Assembly (NCBI GenBank): GCA_038040485.1
Contig: JBBPIE010000001.1
Span: 152,014-216,013 of the forward strand
Length of the DNA stretch: 64,000 nucleotides
Direction of reading: 5' to 3'
Source: Candidatus Onstottus arcticum
Lineage (GTDB): Bacteria > Acidobacteriota > Blastocatellia > UBA7656
The notes under the pieces are model-generated. The model saw only the letters and a list, made by a program, of their open reading frames with translations, was not told the DNA's origin and ran no database searches. This document shows positions 41,578-57,871 of the stretch, in pieces; within the stretch, counting starts at the first letter, position 1; every line of letters starts with the position of its first letter. Made by a program: the position numbers and the translations under genes.

Positions 41578-41692
41578 TTTTGGATTTTAGATTTTAGATT
41601 TTGGATTTTGGATTTTGGATTGCGCCGCTGCCCTTGTAGCTCTTGGTGGCAAGCTCGAGCTATTCCAAAATCCAAAATCCAAAATCCAAAAT
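41578..41692. repeat. Palindromic simple-repeat element (TTTTGGA/TTTTAGA units)
   Basis: tttttggattttagattttagattttggattttggattttggatt | gcgccgctgcccttgtagctcttggtggcaagctcgagctatt | ccaaaatccaaaatccaaaatccaaaatg. Confidence 0.85.
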
Positions 41693-41791
41693 GACCTTCG
41701 CCTCCCAGGGACTACCGGCAAGTAGGGCTTCTTGTTCGCTGAACGCGGCCAAGGTAGACTCGCCTTTGAGCGCAAGCTTGGTCATCGGGCA

Positions 41792-42925
41792 ATGATATTC
41801 AACTCGAAACCGTTTTATCTGGGCCGCGTCCTGGGCATACCGATCCGGGCACACTACAGTTGGCTGCCCGTCTTCCCGTTCTATGCGTGGGCGATCGCGT
41901 CGGGGTTGCTGCCTCGCGAGGCGCCCGGCCGCAGCACCTTTGAGTACTGGGCGCTCGGGCTTCTGACGACGATGCTGTTGTTTGTTTCAGTGCTCGCGCA
42001 CGAGCTTGCGCACGCATTAATGGCAAGAGCGGAAGGGCTCGGCACCGGCAACATAACGCTCTATATGTTTGGAGGGCTCGCATCGCTGAACGGGCAGCCG
42101 GCCTCGCCTTCATCTGAGTTCAAGATCGCCATCGTCGGTCCGGCTGCCAGCTTCCTGATCGGCGGCGTTTTCTTTTTGACCGTCGAACTACTCCTTCACG
42201 GTACAACCCATCGAGCGCTTGGGCAGGTGCTTCGGCACCTGGGTCTGGTGAACTGGTTTCTGGCGGGCTTCAACATATTGCCCGGCCTGCCGCTTGACGG
42301 CGGACGAGTGCTTCGCGCGGCGCTGTGGCGGTACAACAAGAATTTTCGAGTGGCAACCCAGATCGCGGTGCGCTCGGGGCTGATGATTGCAATAACGCTT
42401 GTGGTGTTTGGCGTCTACTTTTTTTTGAAAGTACCCGATTACGGGATCACCGGGATTTGGTGCGCGATCGTCGGGTTGATAATCGCCTTGATGCTGGGCA
42501 CAACCGAGGGCCGCAGCCGCGGCGTCTGGCGCGTGAAACGCGGAACCGTCGAGGATGTGATGATCCAGGACGTGGTTCAGATTCCGCCGTCGATGAAGAT
42601 CAATGACTTCATTGACAAGGTGCTCAATAACAATCACCACACGAGTTTTCCGGTGGTCGACAACAGACGACTTCACGGGTTGTTGCTGCTGGAAGAGTTA
42701 AAGAAAGTGCCGCGCGAGGAGTGGCCCCAGCTTGAAGCCCGTGACGTGATGCGCCCGGTTGACCCTTCGATGTTTGTGAACTGGAACGCGACGATTGATC
42801 AGGCGCAGTCTATGCTGGCGGCCAATGGCCTCGAGCGCGCGGTAGTATTAGACTCGAATGGATTCATTGTGGGCTATATCAGCTTGCAGGATGTCGCCAA
42901 GGTGCAGGGCGGTAGGCCCAGCTAG
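41792..42925 (+). CDS. Site-2 protease family (M50) zinc metalloprotease with tandem CBS domains
   Basis: HELAHALMAR (HExxH) in TM helix. Multiple TM segments. C-terminal CBS pairs (VMIQDVVQIPPSM...; GYISLQDV). Start chosen at ATG 41792. Confidence 0.8.
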   Translation: MIFNSKPFYLGRVLGIPIRAHYSWLPVFPFYAWAIASGLLPREAPGRSTFEYWALGLLTTMLLFVSVLAHELAHALMARAEGLGTGNITLYMFGGLASLNGQPASPSSEFKIAIVGPAASFLIGGVFFLTVELLLHGTTHRALGQVLRHLGLVNWFLAGFNILPGLPLDGGRVLRAALWRYNKNFRVATQIAVRSGLMIAITLVVFGVYFFLKVPDYGITGIWCAIVGLIIALMLGTTEGRSRGVWRVKRGTVEDVMIQDVVQIPPSMKINDFIDKVLNNNHHTSFPVVDNRRLHGLLLLEELKKVPREEWPQLEARDVMRPVDPSMFVNWNATIDQAQSMLAANGLERAVVLDSNGFIVGYISLQDVAKVQGGRPS

Positions 42926-43007
42926 CAGGAAGTCAATCTGGTGTGTTCTCGAAGGCGCAAACTAGTATACTGTACGCGCGCAACGTGGGTGCGTCGGAGA
43001 CGCTCGA

Positions 43008-43448
43008 TTGAACAAGACCTTTAGCCCTTTGGAATGGCTGAACATTATTGGCAGCGTTGCGTCCATCGTCGGAATTGCTCTTTCAGTTTACGTGATCTAC
43101 AATCTTCGTCAAATTCGAAGGTCGTATATGTTCACAGCGAGAGCCCCCGACCTGCTTAAGCGACTTAAGGCGCACTCGTCCCAAGTAAAGAAACTGTTAA
43201 TCGACTTCGACAATTCAAGAGATGAAATCGAGGCAGAGTTGGCGCTGTGCTCGGCCGTTCTAGGCTCTCTCTTGAACAAGGTTAGTCGGAATGAACGTAA
43301 AACCATCTTGAATGTTATTCAGTTGATCGCTGAGAATAGAACTTTGGGCGAGCAGTCCAAGGATCAAGTTTGGATGGTATACAAAAGACTTGTGGGAGTC
43401 GGTGAAACGTTGCGGAACCTGCAAAAGGATAAGCTATGGGAGAAGTAA
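43008..43448 (+). CDS. Hypothetical protein with one N-terminal TM helix (AT-rich cassette, gene 1)
   Basis: 146 aa with TM LNIIGSVASIVGIALSVYVIY, then a helical K/E-rich domain. Codon usage and GC clearly lower than flanking genes. Confidence 0.6.
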   Translation: MNKTFSPLEWLNIIGSVASIVGIALSVYVIYNLRQIRRSYMFTARAPDLLKRLKAHSSQVKKLLIDFDNSRDEIEAELALCSAVLGSLLNKVSRNERKTILNVIQLIAENRTLGEQSKDQVWMVYKRLVGVGETLRNLQKDKLWEK

Positions 43449-43868
43449 ATGACATCCGAAAAAGAAAAACTCATTGAAGTAATCGTAAAGTTAATAAGGG
43501 AAACGCAAGAAGGCAAAATCCGATGGGACATTAAGGAACCGCCTGCCTCATTGAAGTTAGATGTCGATGCCGCAGTCGATTTGGCCTATGAAACGGAGTA
43601 CAAAGGCAAACGACTTCGATTGTACAAAGAGAACTACGTGGTCGAGCGAGGTCTCATTCAGCGAGATCCCATCTTGGATAACCTGCTCGGGACAAAATAT
43701 CCCCACTGGGCAGCCAATATTATGTTGGAGATCACGGACGAGAAGGGAAAAACGTTATGGACTTTTCCGGACGTAAACGGCCTGGACGATCTATTGGATT
43801 CCGTGGAGTATCAAGCCGCAGGAGTAAGCGATTTCCTTGATGAAATTGTGAGTGATAAGGTCTCTTGA
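43449..43868 (+). CDS. Hypothetical soluble protein (AT-rich cassette, gene 2)
   Basis: 139 aa. Translationally coupled to gene 1 (TAAATG). No recognisable domain. Confidence 0.6.
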   Translation: MTSEKEKLIEVIVKLIRETQEGKIRWDIKEPPASLKLDVDAAVDLAYETEYKGKRLRLYKENYVVERGLIQRDPILDNLLGTKYPHWAANIMLEITDEKGKTLWTFPDVNGLDDLLDSVEYQAAGVSDFLDEIVSDKVS

Positions 43869-43877
43869 AGCATTGAG

Positions 43878-45788
43878 TCATTTGACTGCGTCGCTGCCTT
43901 TTGGCAAGCCCGCGCGCAGCTTCCTTAAGTAGGCATTCAAACCCGCATACAACGAAGCCGCAACGCGCTCGCGGAATTCAACTGTTTGCAGCAGAGCTTC
44001 GTCTTTCGGGTTCGAGAGGAAGGAAACCTCAGCGAGCACGCTTGGCATCGACGCGCCGAGCAGCACGACGAACGGCGCGTGCTTTACGCCGCGATTGGCA
44101 GCAGTTCGAGGTGATTGAGCGCCAATGCCTCGCACCAATCCTGATTGAATGTACCGCGCAAGCTCACGGGACTCGGCTACGCGATTGCCCATGGTCGTAA
44201 CGCTGGCGACTACCGGTTGAGCACGATCGGCGGTCTTCGCGCTCGCAAGAGTCGCGTTCTCGCGAGCCGCTGTCTGCAAGTCCTCGGCTGGAACGCGGTC
44301 CGGGCTGACAAAATAGGTTTCCACTCCAGAAGCAATGCGCGATTGGCTCGCGTTGGCGTGGATCGATATGAACAGATCTGCGCGCCGCGAGTTCGCAATC
44401 GCAGTGCGCTCCTCGAGCGCGACAAATCGATCCGCGTCCCGCGTGAGAATCACTTCGACCTCCGGGTAACTGTGTTTGATGTAACCCCTCAGCCTTCGTG
44501 CTACGTCCAGCACGAGGTCCTTCTCGCGCATGCCGCCTGAGCTGATTGTACCGGTGTCGTGTCCGCCGTGGCCGGGGTCGATCACGATACGATGGATCGA
44601 AGCTACGGCGGCTTTGGCGTCGATTTTCGCGCCCAGCGCCTTTGCGAGGACGTCTGCCGGGTTAGCAGCGGGCGGCGCGCTGCGAGCTGTCGCGAGCGTG
44701 ACTATCGGCTCCTGGATCTCGGGTAATGAAATCAGCGGGTTCCGATCGGCTGCGCTCAGTTTGCCCGCGCGAGCCTGCTCGTCTGAAGAGTGCGCGTTCG
44801 CAGATCGCGACTCGCTCGATTCCGATGCGTGAGCAATCCCGCCCGCTCGAAGATCGATCACGATGCGTTCCGGATCCGAAAGACGAAAGGCCGAGTAGTC
44901 GAACGCCGTGCTCAGGTCGATGTCGATCTGAATCCCCGTTGCTGTGCCCTGCGAGACTCTAACTCGTCTCAACAATCCCGACTCGCCGACTATGAATCTG
45001 CGGCCGTACAGCGAGCGCGCGACCGTCGATTCATCAAGCTCAAAGCTCACTCGATTCGCCTCGCGGCGCGCGATGAACTTCGATGCATCCGACAGGTCGA
45101 GCACGACCCGCGCATAGTCCGGTCCGCTGAAGCTCCGGACGTTGGTGAGTCGCGAAGGCCCAATCGTTGCGGCGTCTCCCGCGCCGACCCCCGGAGCTAC
45201 AACAACGTCGACCGGTCTGCGTGCGAGTTCGGCTTCGAATCGCGCGACAACCGCCCGCGCTTCCCGGCCCAAAACAGAGGCGGGGAAATGGGCCGCCAGC
45301 TCTCGATAAGCGCCAGCGGCTCCATCCAGGTCCTGAAGGTTCTGTTCGTAGATTTGCGCTATGCTGATCAACGCGTCGCCGACAAACGCGCTGTTCGAGT
45401 GCTCATCGATCACGTTGCGATAGGTTTCAATCGACTGCTGATACAAAGCGGAATCGCCGGACACATCGGCCATTTCGCGCAAGAGTTCCGCGCGACGGGC
45501 AAGCGACTCTGCGGAAAAGTACATCTCCGTGTTGAGCCTTATCACTTGCCCATAGGCGTCGAGCACGCGGCGATAGTCGGCGGCGCTTCGCTGCTCGGGC
45601 GGCCGGTTATGCAGGTCGCTGCTTAGCGTGCCGGCATACTGGAAGAGTTCTTCGGCAAGAGATCGCGAGATGTGGGAAGGAGAACTCTCAGGATCGGCGG
45701 CGTTCAACACGGGGCGGACCGCCAGACAGAAAACCAGCGCGAAGACAACGCCGTTGAATATCACCTTGTCGCGCACCTGTCGTCGCAT
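43878..45788 (-). CDS. N-acetylmuramoyl-L-alanine amidase (Amidase_3/AmiC-like) with N-terminal TPR-like and AMIN-like regions
   Basis: C-terminal HRIVIDPGHGGHDTGTIS...DLFISIHANAS is the Amidase_3 catalytic core. Signal peptide. Confidence 0.85.
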   Translation of the reverse strand: MRRQVRDKVIFNGVVFALVFCLAVRPVLNAADPESSPSHISRSLAEELFQYAGTLSSDLHNRPPEQRSAADYRRVLDAYGQVIRLNTEMYFSAESLARRAELLREMADVSGDSALYQQSIETYRNVIDEHSNSAFVGDALISIAQIYEQNLQDLDGAAGAYRELAAHFPASVLGREARAVVARFEAELARRPVDVVVAPGVGAGDAATIGPSRLTNVRSFSGPDYARVVLDLSDASKFIARREANRVSFELDESTVARSLYGRRFIVGESGLLRRVRVSQGTATGIQIDIDLSTAFDYSAFRLSDPERIVIDLRAGGIAHASESSESRSANAHSSDEQARAGKLSAADRNPLISLPEIQEPIVTLATARSAPPAANPADVLAKALGAKIDAKAAVASIHRIVIDPGHGGHDTGTISSGGMREKDLVLDVARRLRGYIKHSYPEVEVILTRDADRFVALEERTAIANSRRADLFISIHANASQSRIASGVETYFVSPDRVPAEDLQTAARENATLASAKTADRAQPVVASVTTMGNRVAESRELARYIQSGLVRGIGAQSPRTAANRGVKHAPFVVLLGASMPSVLAEVSFLSNPKDEALLQTVEFRERVAASLYAGLNAYLRKLRAGLPKGSDAVK

Positions 45789-47862: not shown

Positions 47863-47938
47863 GCCAGCGTAGCTCAGTTGGTAGAGCATCGGTTTCGTAA
47901 ACCGGAGGTCAAGGGTTCGAGTCCCTTCGCTGGCTCCA
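47863..47938 (+). tRNA. tRNA-Thr (anticodon CGU)
   Basis: GCCAGCGTAGCTCAGTTGGTAGAGCATCGGTTTCGTAAACCGGAGGTCAAGGGTTCGAGTCCCTTCGCTGGCTCCA. Acceptor stem 7 bp, GTTCGAGTC T-loop, anticodon loop TTCGTAA, encoded CCA. Confidence 0.85.
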
Positions 47939-51236: not shown

Positions 51237-52193
51237 TTACTCTAGTGGCGCATCCATCGGATTCACAACGAAAAGCTGTTCTCTGTGCGGAGGCTCAGCG
51301 GCAGGCTTACCCATTTTCGCTGCCGCGTTCTCTATCTCGGCATTAACCTTGCCACCGACGAGAATGGCTGCGCCCGTCAGGTAGAACCACAACATCAGGA
51401 TGATCACTGCTCCCAGGGATCCATAGGTCACGCTGTATCTGTCGAAGTAATACAGATAGATGCGAAAGCAGAAGGTCACCAGCAGCCAAAGGACGGCGCC
51501 TACAGCCGAGCCTGGTGTGATCCAATGCCACTTCCGATGATGGCGGTCCGGCGCAAAGTAGTAGATCAGAGCGAAGGCAAGTAGCAGGAAGGCGATCACG
51601 ATTGGCCACTGTAGGATGTGCGAAGCCAGCCTGAAGGCTTCACCGAAACCGAAACGCTTAGACACTGCTTTACCGATCTCACCGCCGTAGAGTACCAGTG
51701 CGAGGGCCGAGATAATCAGCACGGCGAGCGTGATAGTAAGACCGACCGCGGAGAGACGCATCCTCCAAAACGAGCGCGTTTCCTTCACCCCATACGCGGC
51801 GTTCAGAGTCTCGGTGATAGCTCCCGTTCCATAAGAAGCGAACCACAGGGCCGCCAGTAATCCAAATGAAAGCTTGCTGCCGTCAGCGTCTTTGTGGATC
51901 TCGTCAATGATAGTGTAGATGAGTTGTGAACCCGAGCGAGGCACGACACGTCCGAGGTAGATGAAGAGGTTCTTGCGCAGTTCTGTTCCCGCCTCTGCGA
52001 GATAGCCGAGCATTGCCGTAAGAAAGATGAGCAACGGAAACAGTGCGAGCAGGAAGTAGTAGGAGAGAGCCGCCGCGCGGGTGAAGAGGTCGCCCTCATA
52101 AATCTCCAGCCAGATGCGCCGACCCAACTCTCGTCGTGTTAATCCGCCGAGCTTCCAAATGGATGCATCAACACTCTGTTCTTCCGTATGCAT
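51237..52193 (-). CDS. YihY/BrkB family membrane protein
   Basis: RAAALSYYFLLALFPLLIFLTAMLGY and 6 TM segments typical of the YihY/virulence factor BrkB family. Confidence 0.8.
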   Translation of the reverse strand: MHTEEQSVDASIWKLGGLTRRELGRRIWLEIYEGDLFTRAAALSYYFLLALFPLLIFLTAMLGYLAEAGTELRKNLFIYLGRVVPRSGSQLIYTIIDEIHKDADGSKLSFGLLAALWFASYGTGAITETLNAAYGVKETRSFWRMRLSAVGLTITLAVLIISALALVLYGGEIGKAVSKRFGFGEAFRLASHILQWPIVIAFLLLAFALIYYFAPDRHHRKWHWITPGSAVGAVLWLLVTFCFRIYLYYFDRYSVTYGSLGAVIILMLWFYLTGAAILVGGKVNAEIENAAAKMGKPAAEPPHREQLFVVNPMDAPLE

Positions 52194-52410
52194 TCATTTC
52201 GAACCTAACATCGAGAGAATTCCTTCACAAGACGCGGCAATAGGGTAGCAGGCAACGCGGTAGTTTATTTGAACCATCTGTTTTGAGAGCGGGAATTTCA
52301 AACTGAACCGCTCCCCGCAACGCAACGTCATAGTTTGCCTTTAACTCCGAGCGTGGGTATGCTGTTTGTCTTGGCGCTTGTGACAATCCATCCGAAGGCA
52401 AGCGGCCTAT

Positions 52411-52790
52411 GCCGAGGAAGATTCTTGTCGTTGACGATAACCTCGACACACGCGAACTAACTCACCTGACCACTGAAGGATTTACAGTAGTGTCGCAGCC
52501 GACGGGCGTGAAGGTTTGTATATGGCCGGCGCTGAGACTCCCGATCTGATAATCACCGACATCAGCATGCCTGAACGTGACGGCATCGACATGATCAGAC
52601 AAATAAGAGAGCAGCCGGATAACAACAACATGCCGATATTGGTCTTGACCGCTTTCGGCAGCGAAGTGGTAGATCAATCAATTGCAGTTGGAGCCACCCT
52701 GCTCTGAAGAAACCCGTACACCTTGATGTGCTTCTAGCTGAAGTGAGAGAATTATTAGACCTCGGAAAGCATGGTAATTAAAGTGCAAAC
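52411..52790 (+). pseudogene. CheY-like receiver-domain gene disrupted by two frameshifts
   Basis: MPRKILVVDDNLDTRELTHLTTEGFTVVS is in frame 1. ...LYMAGAETPDLIITDISMPERDGIDMIRQIRE...PILVLTAFG is in frame 2. ...KKPVHLDVLLAEVRELLD is in frame 3. Confidence 0.7.
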
Positions 52791-53065
52791 GGCACGGGCA
52801 GGCGAGCCGATCTATCGGTTAGTGCGATATAAAGTAGTGCTGTTCGTAGCAAGTTAAAATGTCCGCTTTTCATAGCAAGTTATATGTCCGGTCTGCTGGC
52901 CCTTCCATAACGATTGCTTCTTTATAAGGTTATCCGAAAAGTTTTTGCTCAAGAAATCCGAGCAGCTTTTACACAAATTGAAATAGCCACAGAGACGCCG
53001 CCCGGCGGCGTCTCTGTGGCTTCTTGTCTGTTCTGATTAGACGATCGGCTCGTAAACGGCCATCA

Positions 53066-53560
53066 TTATCTGAACAACTCCAGCGCGACTTGGGAGAGCG
53101 CCGCCACAATAGGCTCTGCAAAACGAGTGTTGCGGCTGCGCCCGCCGCCGAGACCCGAGGCGAGAAGTACGCCTATGCCTATTCCCGCGCCGAACGCGAT
53201 AAGGGTAAGCTTGCCGGGATTCTCCTTGCCGTAGCTCATCGTCTGATCGTAGGTGTTGCCAACGACTTCGCTCGTCTTGTCGTAGGCCTGGCTTACAGCC
53301 TTCACCGTCTGATCGTAGGCAGTCTGTACTCCGCTGCCAACATCCGAAACGATTTCGCGCGCACGTTGAGGCGCAGTGCCCGCGAACCCTGGTGTCCCAG
53401 ATGGTTGCGCTGTTGCGGTAGACGGCTTGTTAGCAGCATCCGGATCCTGCTGAACGTGCCTCTGTGGCTGTGAGGTGGATTGCGGGGTTGTGTTAGACGG
53501 GTTATTAGGACTACCACCGGTCGTTTTGCCCTGCTCTGTTACATTCTTGTTCGATTCCAT
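53066..53560 (-). CDS. Membrane-anchored stress protein (DUF883/YqjD/ElaB-like)
   Basis: Hydrophilic N-terminus, central helical region, C-terminal TM KLTLIAFGAGIGIGVLLASGL. Confidence 0.55.
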   Translation of the reverse strand: MESNKNVTEQGKTTGGSPNNPSNTTPQSTSQPQRHVQQDPDAANKPSTATAQPSGTPGFAGTAPQRAREIVSDVGSGVQTAYDQTVKAVSQAYDKTSEVVGNTYDQTMSYGKENPGKLTLIAFGAGIGIGVLLASGLGGGRSRNTRFAEPIVAALSQVALELFR

Positions 53561-55591: not shown

Positions 55592-56229
55592 ATGCGCGAG
55601 TCGTTGGAACGCGAGGCGAAGAACTCGCGTGCCATCAAGATTCCGAAACACGAAAACGTCACACTATTGGAGAGCAAGACGAGATGGTCTACTTCATTGA
55701 GAGCGGGGAGGTAAAGCTGCTGATGCTCTCTTCTGAAGGCAGAGAATGTCTACTTGCTATCCACGCTCCAGGAGATGTCTTTGGCGAGCTGTGCCTGTCG
55801 GGGATAGCGGGCCGGCTGGAAACTGCGACCGCAATGGAAGACACGCGATTGAAGAAGGTTCCGTGTGCAAAGTTCCTTGAACGTTTAGCCACCGACTCGC
55901 TGCTTGAAGGTTTCGTCAAGTATCTGGCTGTGCGCGTGGGAGACCAACAGGAAGTCATCGCTAATCTGGTGACGGTTGATAGCGAACAACGCTTAGGGAA
56001 GACCTTGTTGCACCTGGCCAGACAATTGGGCAAGAAAGGCCCTCGCATTACACAGATCGAGCTGAGGATTTCACACGAAGAACTGTCGAACATGATCGGC
56101 ACAACGCGGCCACGGATCAGCGTATTCATGCAGCGATTCCGGAACCTCGACCTCATTGAATACAGCACAGAGCACCATCTAATTGTTAAGGAAATTAAGC
56201 TCACCGCTTACCTGGCATCGATTGCCTAG
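55592..56229 (+). pseudogene. Crp/Fnr family transcriptional regulator, paralog 1, apparent +/-1 frameshift near 55670-55690
   Basis: N-terminal MRESLEREAKNSRAIKIPKHENV is in one frame and aligns to paralog 2 (QMQGSLFNETKNSSPIKIGKHDHV). The rest, from MVYFIESGEVKL, is in another frame. cNMP-binding region plus C-terminal HTH (HEELSNMIGTTRPRISVFMQRF). Confidence 0.7.
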
Positions 56230-56497
56230 CCGGCTGCGCACGCCCTGTCCCATCGAATCTAAATTTTTACACTTGTCTAGTATTGAACAGCATTGAATCC
56301 GCGATGCGAGTCTTGTGGCCGCAGTTTACTAATAGGTCTACCGCGTCGGCAACGATGACATTCATTCACGACGACCCCGTAGACCGATTGGTAAGGTGTT
56401 CAAGGCCTAACTGCTTCGGCAGGTACAAAGAAAGCTTAAACGTTCGATTAGAAGGGGGCCTGTATAAAGTAATAGGCTCGAAATTGCGAGGTGGTAA

Positions 56498-56908
56498 ATG
56501 ACAGCAATGGCAACCACGTCAGAAGCAAGAAAACGGATTCTCTGGGTCGATGACCATGAGGACACCAGGAATATGATGAGTGTCCTGCTTGACCAGTACG
56601 GCTACGAAGCGGAAATCGCCGCTTCTCTGTCCGCTGCGTTGGAAAGTGCCAGGTCCGGCGGGCTCGCCTTGTGCATACTCGATCATTGGATAACCGAGGG
56701 CAGCAACGGAATTGAGCTATGTCAGCAGATTCGCGCCTTTGACTCAGACACGCCGATAATGTTCTATTCAGGCGCGGGCTATCAAGCTGATATTAAGAAG
56801 GGACTGGATGCCGGCGCGCAGGCGTACCTTGTCAAACCGGACTTTGACCATCTGGAGCAAACGATTGACCGGCTTATTGACGAAGCTGACTCCACCACTC
56901 ATCACTAG
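56498..56908 (+). CDS. Stand-alone response-regulator receiver domain protein (CheY-like)
   Basis: RILWVDDHEDTRNMM...LCILDHWITEGSNGIELCQQIR...AYLVKPDF includes the Asp pocket and the phospho-acceptor D. Confidence 0.8.
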   Translation: MTAMATTSEARKRILWVDDHEDTRNMMSVLLDQYGYEAEIAASLSAALESARSGGLALCILDHWITEGSNGIELCQQIRAFDSDTPIMFYSGAGYQADIKKGLDAGAQAYLVKPDFDHLEQTIDRLIDEADSTTHH

Positions 56909-57190
56909 TCGTTTAGGAAGTAACTCTCAGAAACGAACCTGCAAAACCTGCCCTTCACCTTATTCCTTCGGCAACGGGGAATCTGAGCTAGAGATGAGGG
57001 AGAAACCGATATCCGTTCGCGTTGACGGGCTAGAAGGGACGAGTTCTTTTAGTTCAGGGTATTTTCAACTCCGTGGATGGCAAAGTGGACAATTGTTCAA
57101 TATCGAACAGCGCCGCTTTTATCGGAAGCGCATACTTAGGTAGTCGATAAGCATTGAAAGATAAATCAGCGGAAATGGAAGAGAAGAAGT

Positions 57191-57871
57191 ATGATTCAAG
57201 AAGCTTCTCAGTCGGATCAATTCAAAGAACAGATGCAAGGGTCGTTGTTCAACGAAACCAAGAACTCGAGCCCTATCAAGATCGGCAAGCACGATCATGT
57301 CTACACGCCTGGAGATGAACGCGAGACTGTATACTTCATCGAAAAAGGACAGATCAAGCTGGTCATGGCCTCGTCTGAAGGTAAAGAGTGCATGCTGGCC
57401 ATCCACGGCCCGGGAGATGTTTTCGGCGAGCTGTGCCTGTCTGGGCTTGGGGGCCGGTTGGAAACAGCGACCGCGATGGAAGATTCTTTCCTGAAAGAGA
57501 TCCCTTGTACCAAGTTTCTCGATCGCCTAGCTCAAGACTCTCTCCTCGAAGGCTTCATCAAGTATCTGGCTGTGCGGGTTGCCGACCAACAGGCTGTCAT
57601 CGCCAATCTGGTAACGGTTGATAGCGAGCAGCGCCTGGGGACGACCTTATTGCAAATCGCCAGAAAGTTCGGAAAGAAAGACCCGCGGAGCATACGCATC
57701 GAGGTCAAGATTTCTCATGAAGAATTGGGGACAATGGTGGGCACGACTCGACCGCGGGTCAGCGTATTCATGCAGCGATTTCGGAACCTCGACCTCATTG
57801 AGTACAACACAGAGCACCATCTGATTATCAAGGAAAAAAAGCTCACTGCTTACCTAACATCGATCCTCTAG
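57191..57871 (+). CDS. Crp/Fnr family transcriptional regulator, paralog 2 (intact)
   Basis: cNMP-binding domain VYFIEKGQIKLVMASSEGKECMLAIHGPGDVFGELCL plus HTH. About 80% identical to paralog 1. Confidence 0.85.
   Translation: MIQEASQSDQFKEQMQGSLFNETKNSSPIKIGKHDHVYTPGDERETVYFIEKGQIKLVMASSEGKECMLAIHGPGDVFGELCLSGLGGRLETATAMEDSFLKEIPCTKFLDRLAQDSLLEGFIKYLAVRVADQQAVIANLVTVDSEQRLGTTLLQIARKFGKKDPRSIRIEVKISHEELGTMVGTTRPRVSVFMQRFRNLDLIEYNTEHHLIIKEKKLTAYLTSIL

Follow-up and report, generated by a model that had tools for sequence, protein, structure and literature searches.

A linked, very probably mobile pair of AT-rich genes at the M50 protease/amidase junction of Candidatus Onstottus arcticum and its scattered relatives, with a tentative role in genetic conflict

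The window analysed here, a stretch of 64,000 nucleotides of Candidatus Onstottus arcticum (Acidobacteriota; Blastocatellia; UBA7656; GenBank assembly GCA_038040485.1, contig JBBPIE010000001.1, positions 152,014 to 216,013 of the forward strand), carries between two convergent housekeeping genes a cassette of two small genes, here called g1 and g2 (Table 1). A previous inspection of the letters and open reading frames (ORFs), referred to below as the sequence-only reading, had described a 146-amino acid product with one N-terminal transmembrane segment and a soluble product of 139 amino acids, joined by TAAATG and located 82 bp after the stop of a site-2 protease and 9 bp before the stop of an amidase. 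Both ORFs and their features were verified and the spacing proved exact, with the TAA of g1 (43446-43448) abutting the ATG of g2 (43449-43451) and the stop codon of the amidase on the minus strand at 43878-43880, while the convergent flanks are recognized by Pfam as Peptidase_M50 plus CBS and as Amidase_3 plus AMIN. Both flanks are conserved host genes outside the module; M50 orthologs with 65-83% identity occur at 37 Blastocatellia loci, cassette present or not, and the amidase is convergent with the M50 gene at most Blastocatellia loci, again with or without the cassette.

Upstream of g1, a -10-like element, AGTATACT, is invariant in a DNA alignment of five cassette-bearing lineages, and a Shine-Dalgarno-like GGAG 8 nucleotides 5' of the TTG start is retained, together with the TTG, in four of the five; both may be functional elements, although a full promoter was not found by a consensus sigma-70 scan. 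The last codons of g1 encode W-E-K, of which W-E (TGGGAG) contains a GGAG-like site, so that the end of g1 would double as the ribosome-binding site of g2. No non-coding RNA was found within the cassette, and no paralogs of its proteins were found in the window. At the cassette, flanking direct or inverted repeats, an att-like duplication, a tRNA, a mobility gene, an insertion scar and a convincing terminator were likewise absent.

Table 1. Features of the cassette, its flanks and other stretches of the window
Feature	Position	Strand	Description and basis
g1	43008-43448	+	TTG start, 146 amino acids (ORF list, sequence)
g2	43449-43868	+	ATG start, 139 amino acids (ORF list, sequence)
Left flank	41732-42925	+	M50 (site-2-type) metalloprotease with CBS domains (Pfam Peptidase_M50+CBS)
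Right flank	43878-45788	-	N-acetylmuramoyl-L-alanine amidase, TPR + AMIN + Amidase_3 (Pfam)
Region 5' of cassette	42926-43007	+	-10-like and Shine-Dalgarno-like elements
-10-like element AGTATACT	42964-42971		putative
Shine-Dalgarno-like GGAG	42996-42999		putative
Coupling junction TGGGAGAAGTAAATG	43437-43451	+	g1 end / g2 start (sequence)
Hydrophobic helix of g1	43044-43100		residues 13-31
Heptamer array (TTTTGGA)x6	41578-41621		histidine-phosphatase/M50 gap
Heptamer array (TCCAAAA)x4	41664-41692		inverted relative to the first array; together a long hairpin, 41578-41692
tRNA-Thr (CGT)	47863-47938		single tRNA gene of the window
Low-GC stretch	52071-53140		GC below 0.50
Low-GC stretch	56251-57870		GC below 0.50
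ORF	56498-56908		receiver-domain-like
ORF	55684-56229		Crp/Fnr-like by eye
ORF	57191-57871		Crp/Fnr-like by eye

Close homologs of the pair are scarce, with three clusters for g1 and seven clusters for g2 among 5.8 billion, but an exhaustive profile search with g2 recovered 702 cluster representatives at E<=1e-3, 306 of them at E<=1e-10 and nearly all 120-150 amino acids long, which sets the family size, counted as clusters at 50% identity, at 702 at least. Pairwise ratios of nonsynonymous to synonymous divergence (dN/dS) between Blastocatellia orthologs with unsaturated dS range from 0.08 to 0.14 for g1 and from 0.12 to 0.22 for g2. Both are thus genuine genes under purifying selection, and spurious or chance ORFs are rejected by these ratios (0.08-0.22 overall) and by the number of representatives.

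The two genes travel together. With profile hidden Markov models (HMMs) of both families, a g1 homolog was found directly 5' of g2 in 35 of the 35 loci which offer at least 450 nucleotides upstream, distant g1 partners being recovered by Blastp with E-values of 1e-11 to 1e-29. Two apparent exceptions (loci L091 and L092) and a 39-amino acid g1 at L064 turned out to be filter or gene-calling artefacts, with the g1 copy of L091 nevertheless truly truncated. Stop and start codons are separated by 0-4 nucleotides or overlap by one nucleotide, a spacing kept across distant family members. The pair is therefore an obligately linked, previously unnamed two-gene family, and, with the distribution described below, we hold it to be real, mobile and undescribed with high confidence.

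The g1 product consists of a short N-terminus, one transmembrane helix with a mean Kyte-Doolittle hydropathy of 2.15 over 19 residues, the basic juxtamembrane motif RQIRRSYMFTARAP and a four-helix bundle at approximately residues 45-140. Structure prediction, a check proposed by the sequence-only reading, was performed with AlphaFold2, which also renders the hydrophobic segment as a helix and lets this long N-terminal helix continue into the bundle (mean predicted local distance difference test score, pLDDT, 79.5 and around 90 over residues 50-140); in the predicted model, the cytoplasmic domain shows the four antiparallel helices and the confident structural matches of an up-down four-helix bundle. 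In 14 of 14 g1-family members the N-terminal flank of the transmembrane helix is short and non-basic while the C-terminal flank carries 3-6 lysine or arginine residues within 15 residues, so that an N-out/C-in orientation is predicted, which would place the bundle of g1 in the cytoplasm, as g2. Distant g1 homologs retain the N-terminal transmembrane helix, a juxtamembrane motif R.Y.F.AR.P and an acidic/aromatic C-terminal end. Compared by profile with sequences of the PDB, g1 gave coiled-coil or compositional noise only (DC-SIGNR neck, haemagglutinin HA2), and the 14 family members gave scattered weak coiled-coil-type matches only in Pfam, among them DUF948 in two of the 14 (best E=0.0084).

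The g2 product is soluble, with neither a signal peptide nor a transmembrane segment. Its predicted fold, an N-terminal helix, a four-stranded antiparallel sheet and C-terminal helices, comes from a weak model (pLDDT 60), and its family is characterized by the conserved motifs LTQ.G...W, LRLY, LW.FP and YQ[VA]AGV; a profile comparison of g2 with the PDB gave no match. Pfam scans found no DNA-binding domain (helix-turn-helix, ribbon-helix-helix, AbrB, Phd/YefM) in g1 or g2, the predicted folds being a four-helix bundle and a helix plus sheet. In both families the positions with no or hardly any variation are taken by hydrophobic or structural residues (W, L, P, F, Y), besides one R and one or two D, and no catalytic-type constellation is found among them. 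Two loci, L066 (81-449) and L067 (145-513), encode an N-terminally shorter relative of g2 with 122 amino acids, preceded by an AT-rich non-coding stretch; no g1 lies within the 80-144 nucleotides available upstream, and the downstream genes encode proteins of about 212-222, 114-134 and 89 amino acids without a recorded Pfam match. These loci may represent a different architecture around the g2 domain.

The base composition of the cassette stands out, as the sequence-only reading had stated with respect to GC content and codon usage. The GC content is 0.458 for g1 and 0.455 for g2 versus 0.58-0.61 for the flanking genes, and at third codon positions 0.51-0.57 versus 0.63-0.77, with a deficit at all three codon positions; in the encoded proteins K, L, I, D and E are abundant, whereas A, G, P and R are scarce. 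At 0.456 versus 0.577, the cassette is the lowest-GC stretch of 861 bp in the 64 kb, approximately 3.4 standard deviations under the mean, and 0.2% of windows in the scan come within 0.01 of its value. In every Blastocatellia lineage the cassette has 45-50% GC between flanks of 56-62%, and in all ten hosts examined (the window and nine others) the module lies 4-18 points under its surroundings. Because the same offset recurs in every host examined, the AT-richness appears to be intrinsic to the module rather than a sign of recent arrival. Only two other stretches of the window fall below 0.50 at this scale (Table 1), the second of which holds a receiver-domain-like ORF adjoined by two mutually similar ORFs that by eye resemble Crp/Fnr-type regulator paralogs, the first of them seemingly shorter at the N-terminus.

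Close homologs of the cassette are all found at one site, where an M50 gene is followed by g1 and g2 and, in the convergent orientation, by the genes for the amidase, a glycosyltransferase and a lytic transglycosylase. Identity to the window proteins in the first five lineages is 57-73% for g1, 70-86% for g2, 74-83% for M50, 69-75% for the amidase and 73-83% for the glycosyltransferase, while in L020 and L043 it is only 40-51%. The presence or absence of the cassette in related genomes, another check suggested beforehand, was assessed by scanning species-representative genomes with the M50 protein, which yielded 37 Blastocatellia loci, 28 of them with a resolved M50/amidase junction. Thirteen junctions are empty, with 0-114 nucleotides between the convergent stops (L010, L012, L025, L026, L028, L029, L030, L032, L035, L037, L042, L044, L045); six measure 218-338 nucleotides without a convincing gene (L009, L017, L019, L022, L038, L039); six hold unrelated cargo (L011, L015, L016, L027, L031, L034); and three hold the cassette or part of it, namely g1 and g2 in two (L014, with g1 frameshifted, and L020) and g2 alone in one (L043). 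Beyond these species loci, the pair occupies the junction in the window and in three metagenome lineages. The unrelated cargo comprises a 119-amino acid membrane protein, a Hedgehog-N-domain protein, proteins of 382 and 234 amino acids, a pair of 65 and 200 amino acids and a YycE/glyoxalase-like protein.

On a neighbour-joining tree of M50 plus amidase, built from two proteins without bootstrap support and with the L021 tip marked empty though its gene arrangement differs, the presence of the cassette is scattered; the sister of the window, L026, is empty, the nearest relatives of L002 hold other cargo, and L007, with the pair, is sister to L043, with g2 only. Between lineages the cassette alleles differ by 14-49% at the protein level, with dS from 0.6 to saturation, like the flanking genes. 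The distances of the two genes are incongruent, as L001 and L008 share a near-identical g1 (dN 0.024) and a distant g2 (dN 0.164, dS saturated) and L008 and L007 show the opposite, and the cassette has therefore been reshuffled by recombination between lineages. Exchange via the conserved flanks together with deletion would be the simplest account of its movement. The pair has thus resided in the clade long enough for synonymous sites to saturate and is nonetheless accessory and mobile. Conservation across the order with a composition matching each host, which the sequence-only reading had named as the outcome that would speak against it, is not what was found: presence is patchy and composition never host-like.

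Several further observations concern this junction and its M50 gene. L001, L002 and L008 have near-identical g1 genes (approximately 95% nucleotide identity between L001 and L002) and distinct g2 alleles (dN 0.13-0.17, dS 0.9 to saturated), and the breakpoint of recombination apparently falls close to where g1 meets g2. The Hedgehog-N cargo gene, at L015 (7371-7820), encodes 149 amino acids and matches the Hedgehog N-terminal signalling domain over its full length (PF01085, E=2e-49), and L017 (1283-1417) holds a 44-amino acid remnant of it, a bacterial Hedgehog-N/LAS-peptidase-like orphan in a variable spot. L015, L017 and L030 are titled 'uncultured Clostridia bacterium' yet show the Blastocatellia M50/amidase synteny, with M50 67-82% identical to that of the window, and these labels are probably wrong. 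The longest ORF of the M50 gene in the window starts at a TTG (41732) and encodes 397 amino acids; the alignment with relatives begins only at about residue 20, and in related contigs the gene callers predict 377 amino acids, so that the true start is probably ATG 41792 (MIFNSKPF...). In the gap between the histidine phosphatase gene and the M50 gene, two inverted heptamer arrays form a long hairpin (Table 1), for which Rfam gave miRNA-family matches, all sub-threshold, and palindromic arrays of the GGATCTAGGATT / AATCCTAGATCC type occupy the otherwise empty M50/amidase gaps of L025, L029 and L032; the arrays could represent an intergenic repeat specific to the clade or serve as a bidirectional terminator. 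The single tRNA gene of the window lies 4 kb downstream of the cassette and does not adjoin it.

Outside Blastocatellia, distant relatives of the pair are found on prophages and plasmids, among other places. In Escherichia coli the pair is carried by a lambdoid element, circular and 44.6 kb long, on which it separates the integrase side from the tail-fibre genes, just 3' of an AAA-ATPase cluster; the g1 protein has 22% identity to that of the window (E=7e-11) and g2 matches the family profile with an hhalign probability of 99%. In E. coli HS (genes ECHS_RS13730 and ECHS_RS13735; g1, WP_000353836.1; g2, WP_000551278.1) and strain TCM_B_2 it directly follows ssrA at the end of a lambdoid prophage, which is partly decayed in HS. 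Of 5426 complete E. coli genomes, 13 carry the 833-bp segment with the pair at >=99.9% identity. Two IMG/VR prophage contigs, found with the E. coli protein, carry the pair at their edge, while a scan of IMG/VR with the family motif gave no match. Two distinct conjugative IncF plasmids of Klebsiella carry the pair as well, with queH on one side, a TIR-domain gene on the other and IS110 and IS26 elements as bounds. Neighbours in metagenomes include an Unstab_antitox toxin-antitoxin pair, RelE/MqsA with an integrase and an N6 methyltransferase, and a RelA_SpoT gene. In a census of 116 neighbours at 21 non-redundant loci, given as raw counts without a background set, conflict-related or mobile genes comprise a BglII-type restriction-modification pair, mad2, PDC-S15, HEC-06, three integrases and two IS110 transposases; as there is no background control, enrichment is unproven. 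At the loci examined outside Blastocatellia, the pair never adjoins an M50 protease or an amidase. The three-gene cluster directly upstream of the E. coli pair (L059, 5307-7229) encodes an AAA ATPase, with a weak match to the PADLOC candidate system PDC-M28B (E=2e-7), and two hypothetical proteins; the cluster is possibly a further candidate for defence within this accessory region.

The absence of an assignable motif, already remarked upon in the sequence-only reading, extends to all curated libraries consulted. The window proteins have no significant match in Pfam, PADLOC, PHROGs or NCBIfam, just as in the PDB-sequence comparisons; the HMM comparison with defence systems proposed beforehand, conducted with PADLOC-DB v2.0.0, gave no support, with no significant match for the window proteins, the E. 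coli and Klebsiella homologs (also without a match in PHROGs) or 66 g2-family members (also without a match in Pfam). Known toxin superfamilies (RelE/ParE, MazF, PIN, Fic, GNAT, HipA, Zeta and others) were not found in g1, g2 or family members with Pfam and NCBIfam. RefSeq labels the E. coli and Klebsiella proteins as 'hypothetical protein'; a literature search found no mention of their accessions, and on the hotspot and defence context it returned general papers only.

What might such a pair do? Our tentative preference, at somewhat less than even odds, is that it serves in genetic conflict as a toxin/antidote or abortive-infection module with g1 as effector and g2 as controller, because of its linkage, its patchy mobility, its carriage by prophages and plasmids, its low GC content, its asymmetric decay and the shared cytoplasmic topology. 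In such a module g1 would be held in the inner membrane by its one N-terminal helix, N-out and C-in, with the four-helix bundle facing the cytoplasm; g2, a small and presumably non-enzymatic cytoplasmic protein, would be made in fixed proportion to g1 via translational coupling; and g1 would act at the membrane as effector while g2 would restrain it or sense a trigger. A physical interaction of g1 with g2, toxicity or membrane action of g1 and a role in phage defence or addiction are what we infer from context and from the pattern of gene decay.

The decay of the cassette deserves particular attention in this respect. In the L002 lineage g1 carries a 2-nucleotide deletion and a 1-nucleotide insertion 19 nucleotides apart (net -1), being otherwise approximately 95% identical to the intact g1 of L001, and the identical lesion is present in five independent assemblies, each with g2 intact. 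At L043, g1 is deleted save for its last codons (...LKDKLWER*) directly after the M50 stop and g2 is intact; at L091, g1 is truncated to 111 amino acids and ends 120 nucleotides upstream of an intact g2. Such decay of g1 with g2 kept, in three independent cases, would be expected if g1 is harmful and g2 protective. The reverse, an intact g1 with a damaged g2, was never seen, in a set of loci found mostly via g2.

A number of points weigh against a conflict module. That asymmetry is subject to ascertainment bias and only suggestive because most loci were found by a g2 search, and the unbiased, M50-anchored sample has three occupied sites. Selection on the pair is purifying, not diversifying, the structural model of g2 is of low confidence, and the libraries searched hold no toxin, antitoxin, defence or phage family with homology to the pair, so that functional inference depends on context. 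The neighbour census is mixed, numerous entries being of housekeeping type (AhpC/redoxin, M24 aminopeptidase at five loci, aldehyde dehydrogenase, TsaE), and soil lineages frequently have the pair by itself amid such genes. Finally, searching 50,697 genomes of cultured phages by tblastn with the g2 of the window or of E. coli gave no match.

Several of these points favour a mobile accessory pair with a non-conflict physiology, spread horizontally as niche-specific accessory genes are, for example a membrane-tethered adaptor or stress pair whose g1 would bring g2 to the membrane: the housekeeping neighbours and the frequent solitary position between them, the steadiness of purifying selection (dN/dS approximately 0.1-0.2) and the lack of a match in defence libraries. 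YhcB/DUF1043 and DUF948 proteins, which are non-toxic envelope proteins, share with g1 a similar size and the layout of an N-terminal transmembrane helix followed by a cytoplasmic helical or coiled-coil domain. They are, however, conserved core genes with no obligate g2-like partner, and the Pfam matches of the g1 family to DUF948 and similar families are weak and inconsistent. Carriage as a prophage moron, the TIR, toxin-antitoxin, restriction-modification and integrase neighbours, the extreme patchiness (13 of 5426 E. coli genomes, few Blastocatellia lineages) and the repeated loss of g1 with g2 kept argue against this explanation, which we consider rather unlikely.

Less probable again, and in our estimation improbable, is an arrangement with g2 as the active component, a sensor, superinfection-exclusion or inhibitor protein, and g1 as a mere anchor or regulator, without any toxic effector. 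It would agree with the persistence of g2 where g1 is frameshifted, deleted or truncated, with the shorter g2 relative lacking a g1 directly upstream at L066 and L067, and with the better conservation of g2 (70-86% versus 57-73% for g1 in the first five Blastocatellia lineages); a position beside att and tail-fibre genes, as in the E. coli prophage, is moreover typical of exclusion genes. On the other hand, g2 has no conserved polar or catalytic residues pointing to an activity of its own, and g1 is present in all 35 loci with room for it, with purifying selection acting on it as strongly as on g2, so that g1 is not generally dispensable.

The sequence-only reading had seen in the cassette the look of a recently acquired compact module, such as a toxin/immunity, abortive-infection or small defence pair. 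Its accessory and mobile character stood, given the patchy site and the prophage and plasmid relatives, its recency did not, and the suggested function stays tentative. A recent one-off horizontal acquisition by the window genome would account for the lowest GC content in the window and for the empty site in the nearest relative by flanking genes; it is highly improbable, given that at least five other lineages carry this cassette at this very site, that dS ranges from 0.6 up to saturation with a protein divergence resembling that of the flanks, that every host examined shows the GC offset, and that insertion scars, att repeats and mobility genes are lacking.

A locus-specific partnership with the flanks, with g1 as substrate or regulator of the M50 protease or the pair as amidase regulator or holin-like partner, agrees with the adjoining position in the window and six related lineages and with g1 being a single-pass membrane protein, the class that site-2 proteases cleave, but is effectively refuted by distribution and is given almost no credence, since most Blastocatellia keep the convergent M50/amidase arrangement without the pair, the pair elsewhere has other neighbours, Pfam finds no anti-sigma domain and no extracytoplasmic function sigma factor nearby, and the convergent amidase has TPR and AMIN domains of its own. 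Two related candidates were rejected as well: a phage holin/lysis cassette, as the amidase is convergent and kept without the pair and neither PHROGs nor cultured phages gave a match, and an anti-sigma factor regulated by the site-2 protease, as there is neither such a domain nor a sigma factor and the M50 association is confined to a few Blastocatellia.

Returning to the conflict module, its closest analogues share architecture and behaviour with the pair, but every homology-based test of membership failed. The small, adjacent, co-directional and co-translated genes that characterize type II toxin-antitoxin systems are found here, with the TAAATG joint, the conserved coupling and the invariable linkage. 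As in the reverse-order systems HigBA, MqsRA and HicAB, stop and start abut or overlap and the putative harmful partner comes first; shared are also AT-richness, patchiness, a location on plasmids and prophages and near other toxin-antitoxin loci, and the possibility of an orphaned second gene. Unlike them, the pair shows no toxin or antitoxin similarity, g2 has no detectable DNA-binding domain, and g1 is membrane-anchored without a nuclease or enzyme fold. The RexA/RexB pair of phage lambda is likewise prophage-borne, combines a membrane and a cytoplasmic protein and lacks enzymatic motifs, and the E. coli relative is a lambdoid accessory pair; RexB is, however, polytopic as opposed to the single transmembrane helix plus four-helix bundle of g1, the gene order differs, and PHROGs and PADLOC reveal no homology. 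JukAB and other two-gene systems of PADLOC-DB are alike in their small architecture, the one point of contact being a non-significant match between g1 and JukA (E=0.022, 12.4 bits, 50 residues).

Neither protein family is represented in the curated libraries searched, while their general architecture is of a known kind. If the conflict function holds, the pair would add a new protein-family pair to the small mobile conflict systems, one missed by Pfam, NCBIfam, PHROGs, PADLOC and PDB sequences; that it founds an undescribed, phylum-spanning family of membrane effectors in abortive infection or addiction, from Acidobacteriota to Enterobacteriaceae and with a possibly NTF2-like g2 partner, is a yet more tentative proposal. 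With the module present in E. coli HS and on Klebsiella plasmids as well, what was found in an uncultured soil acidobacterium becomes directly testable in standard strains and phage panels. The M50/amidase junction of Blastocatellia, for its part, is a small variable spot which gathers orphan genes without recognizable mobility genes, and as such a useful natural trap for the accessory genes of a phylum that has received little study. Should the conflict function fail, g1 and g2 would still constitute a well-delimited and widespread two-gene family.

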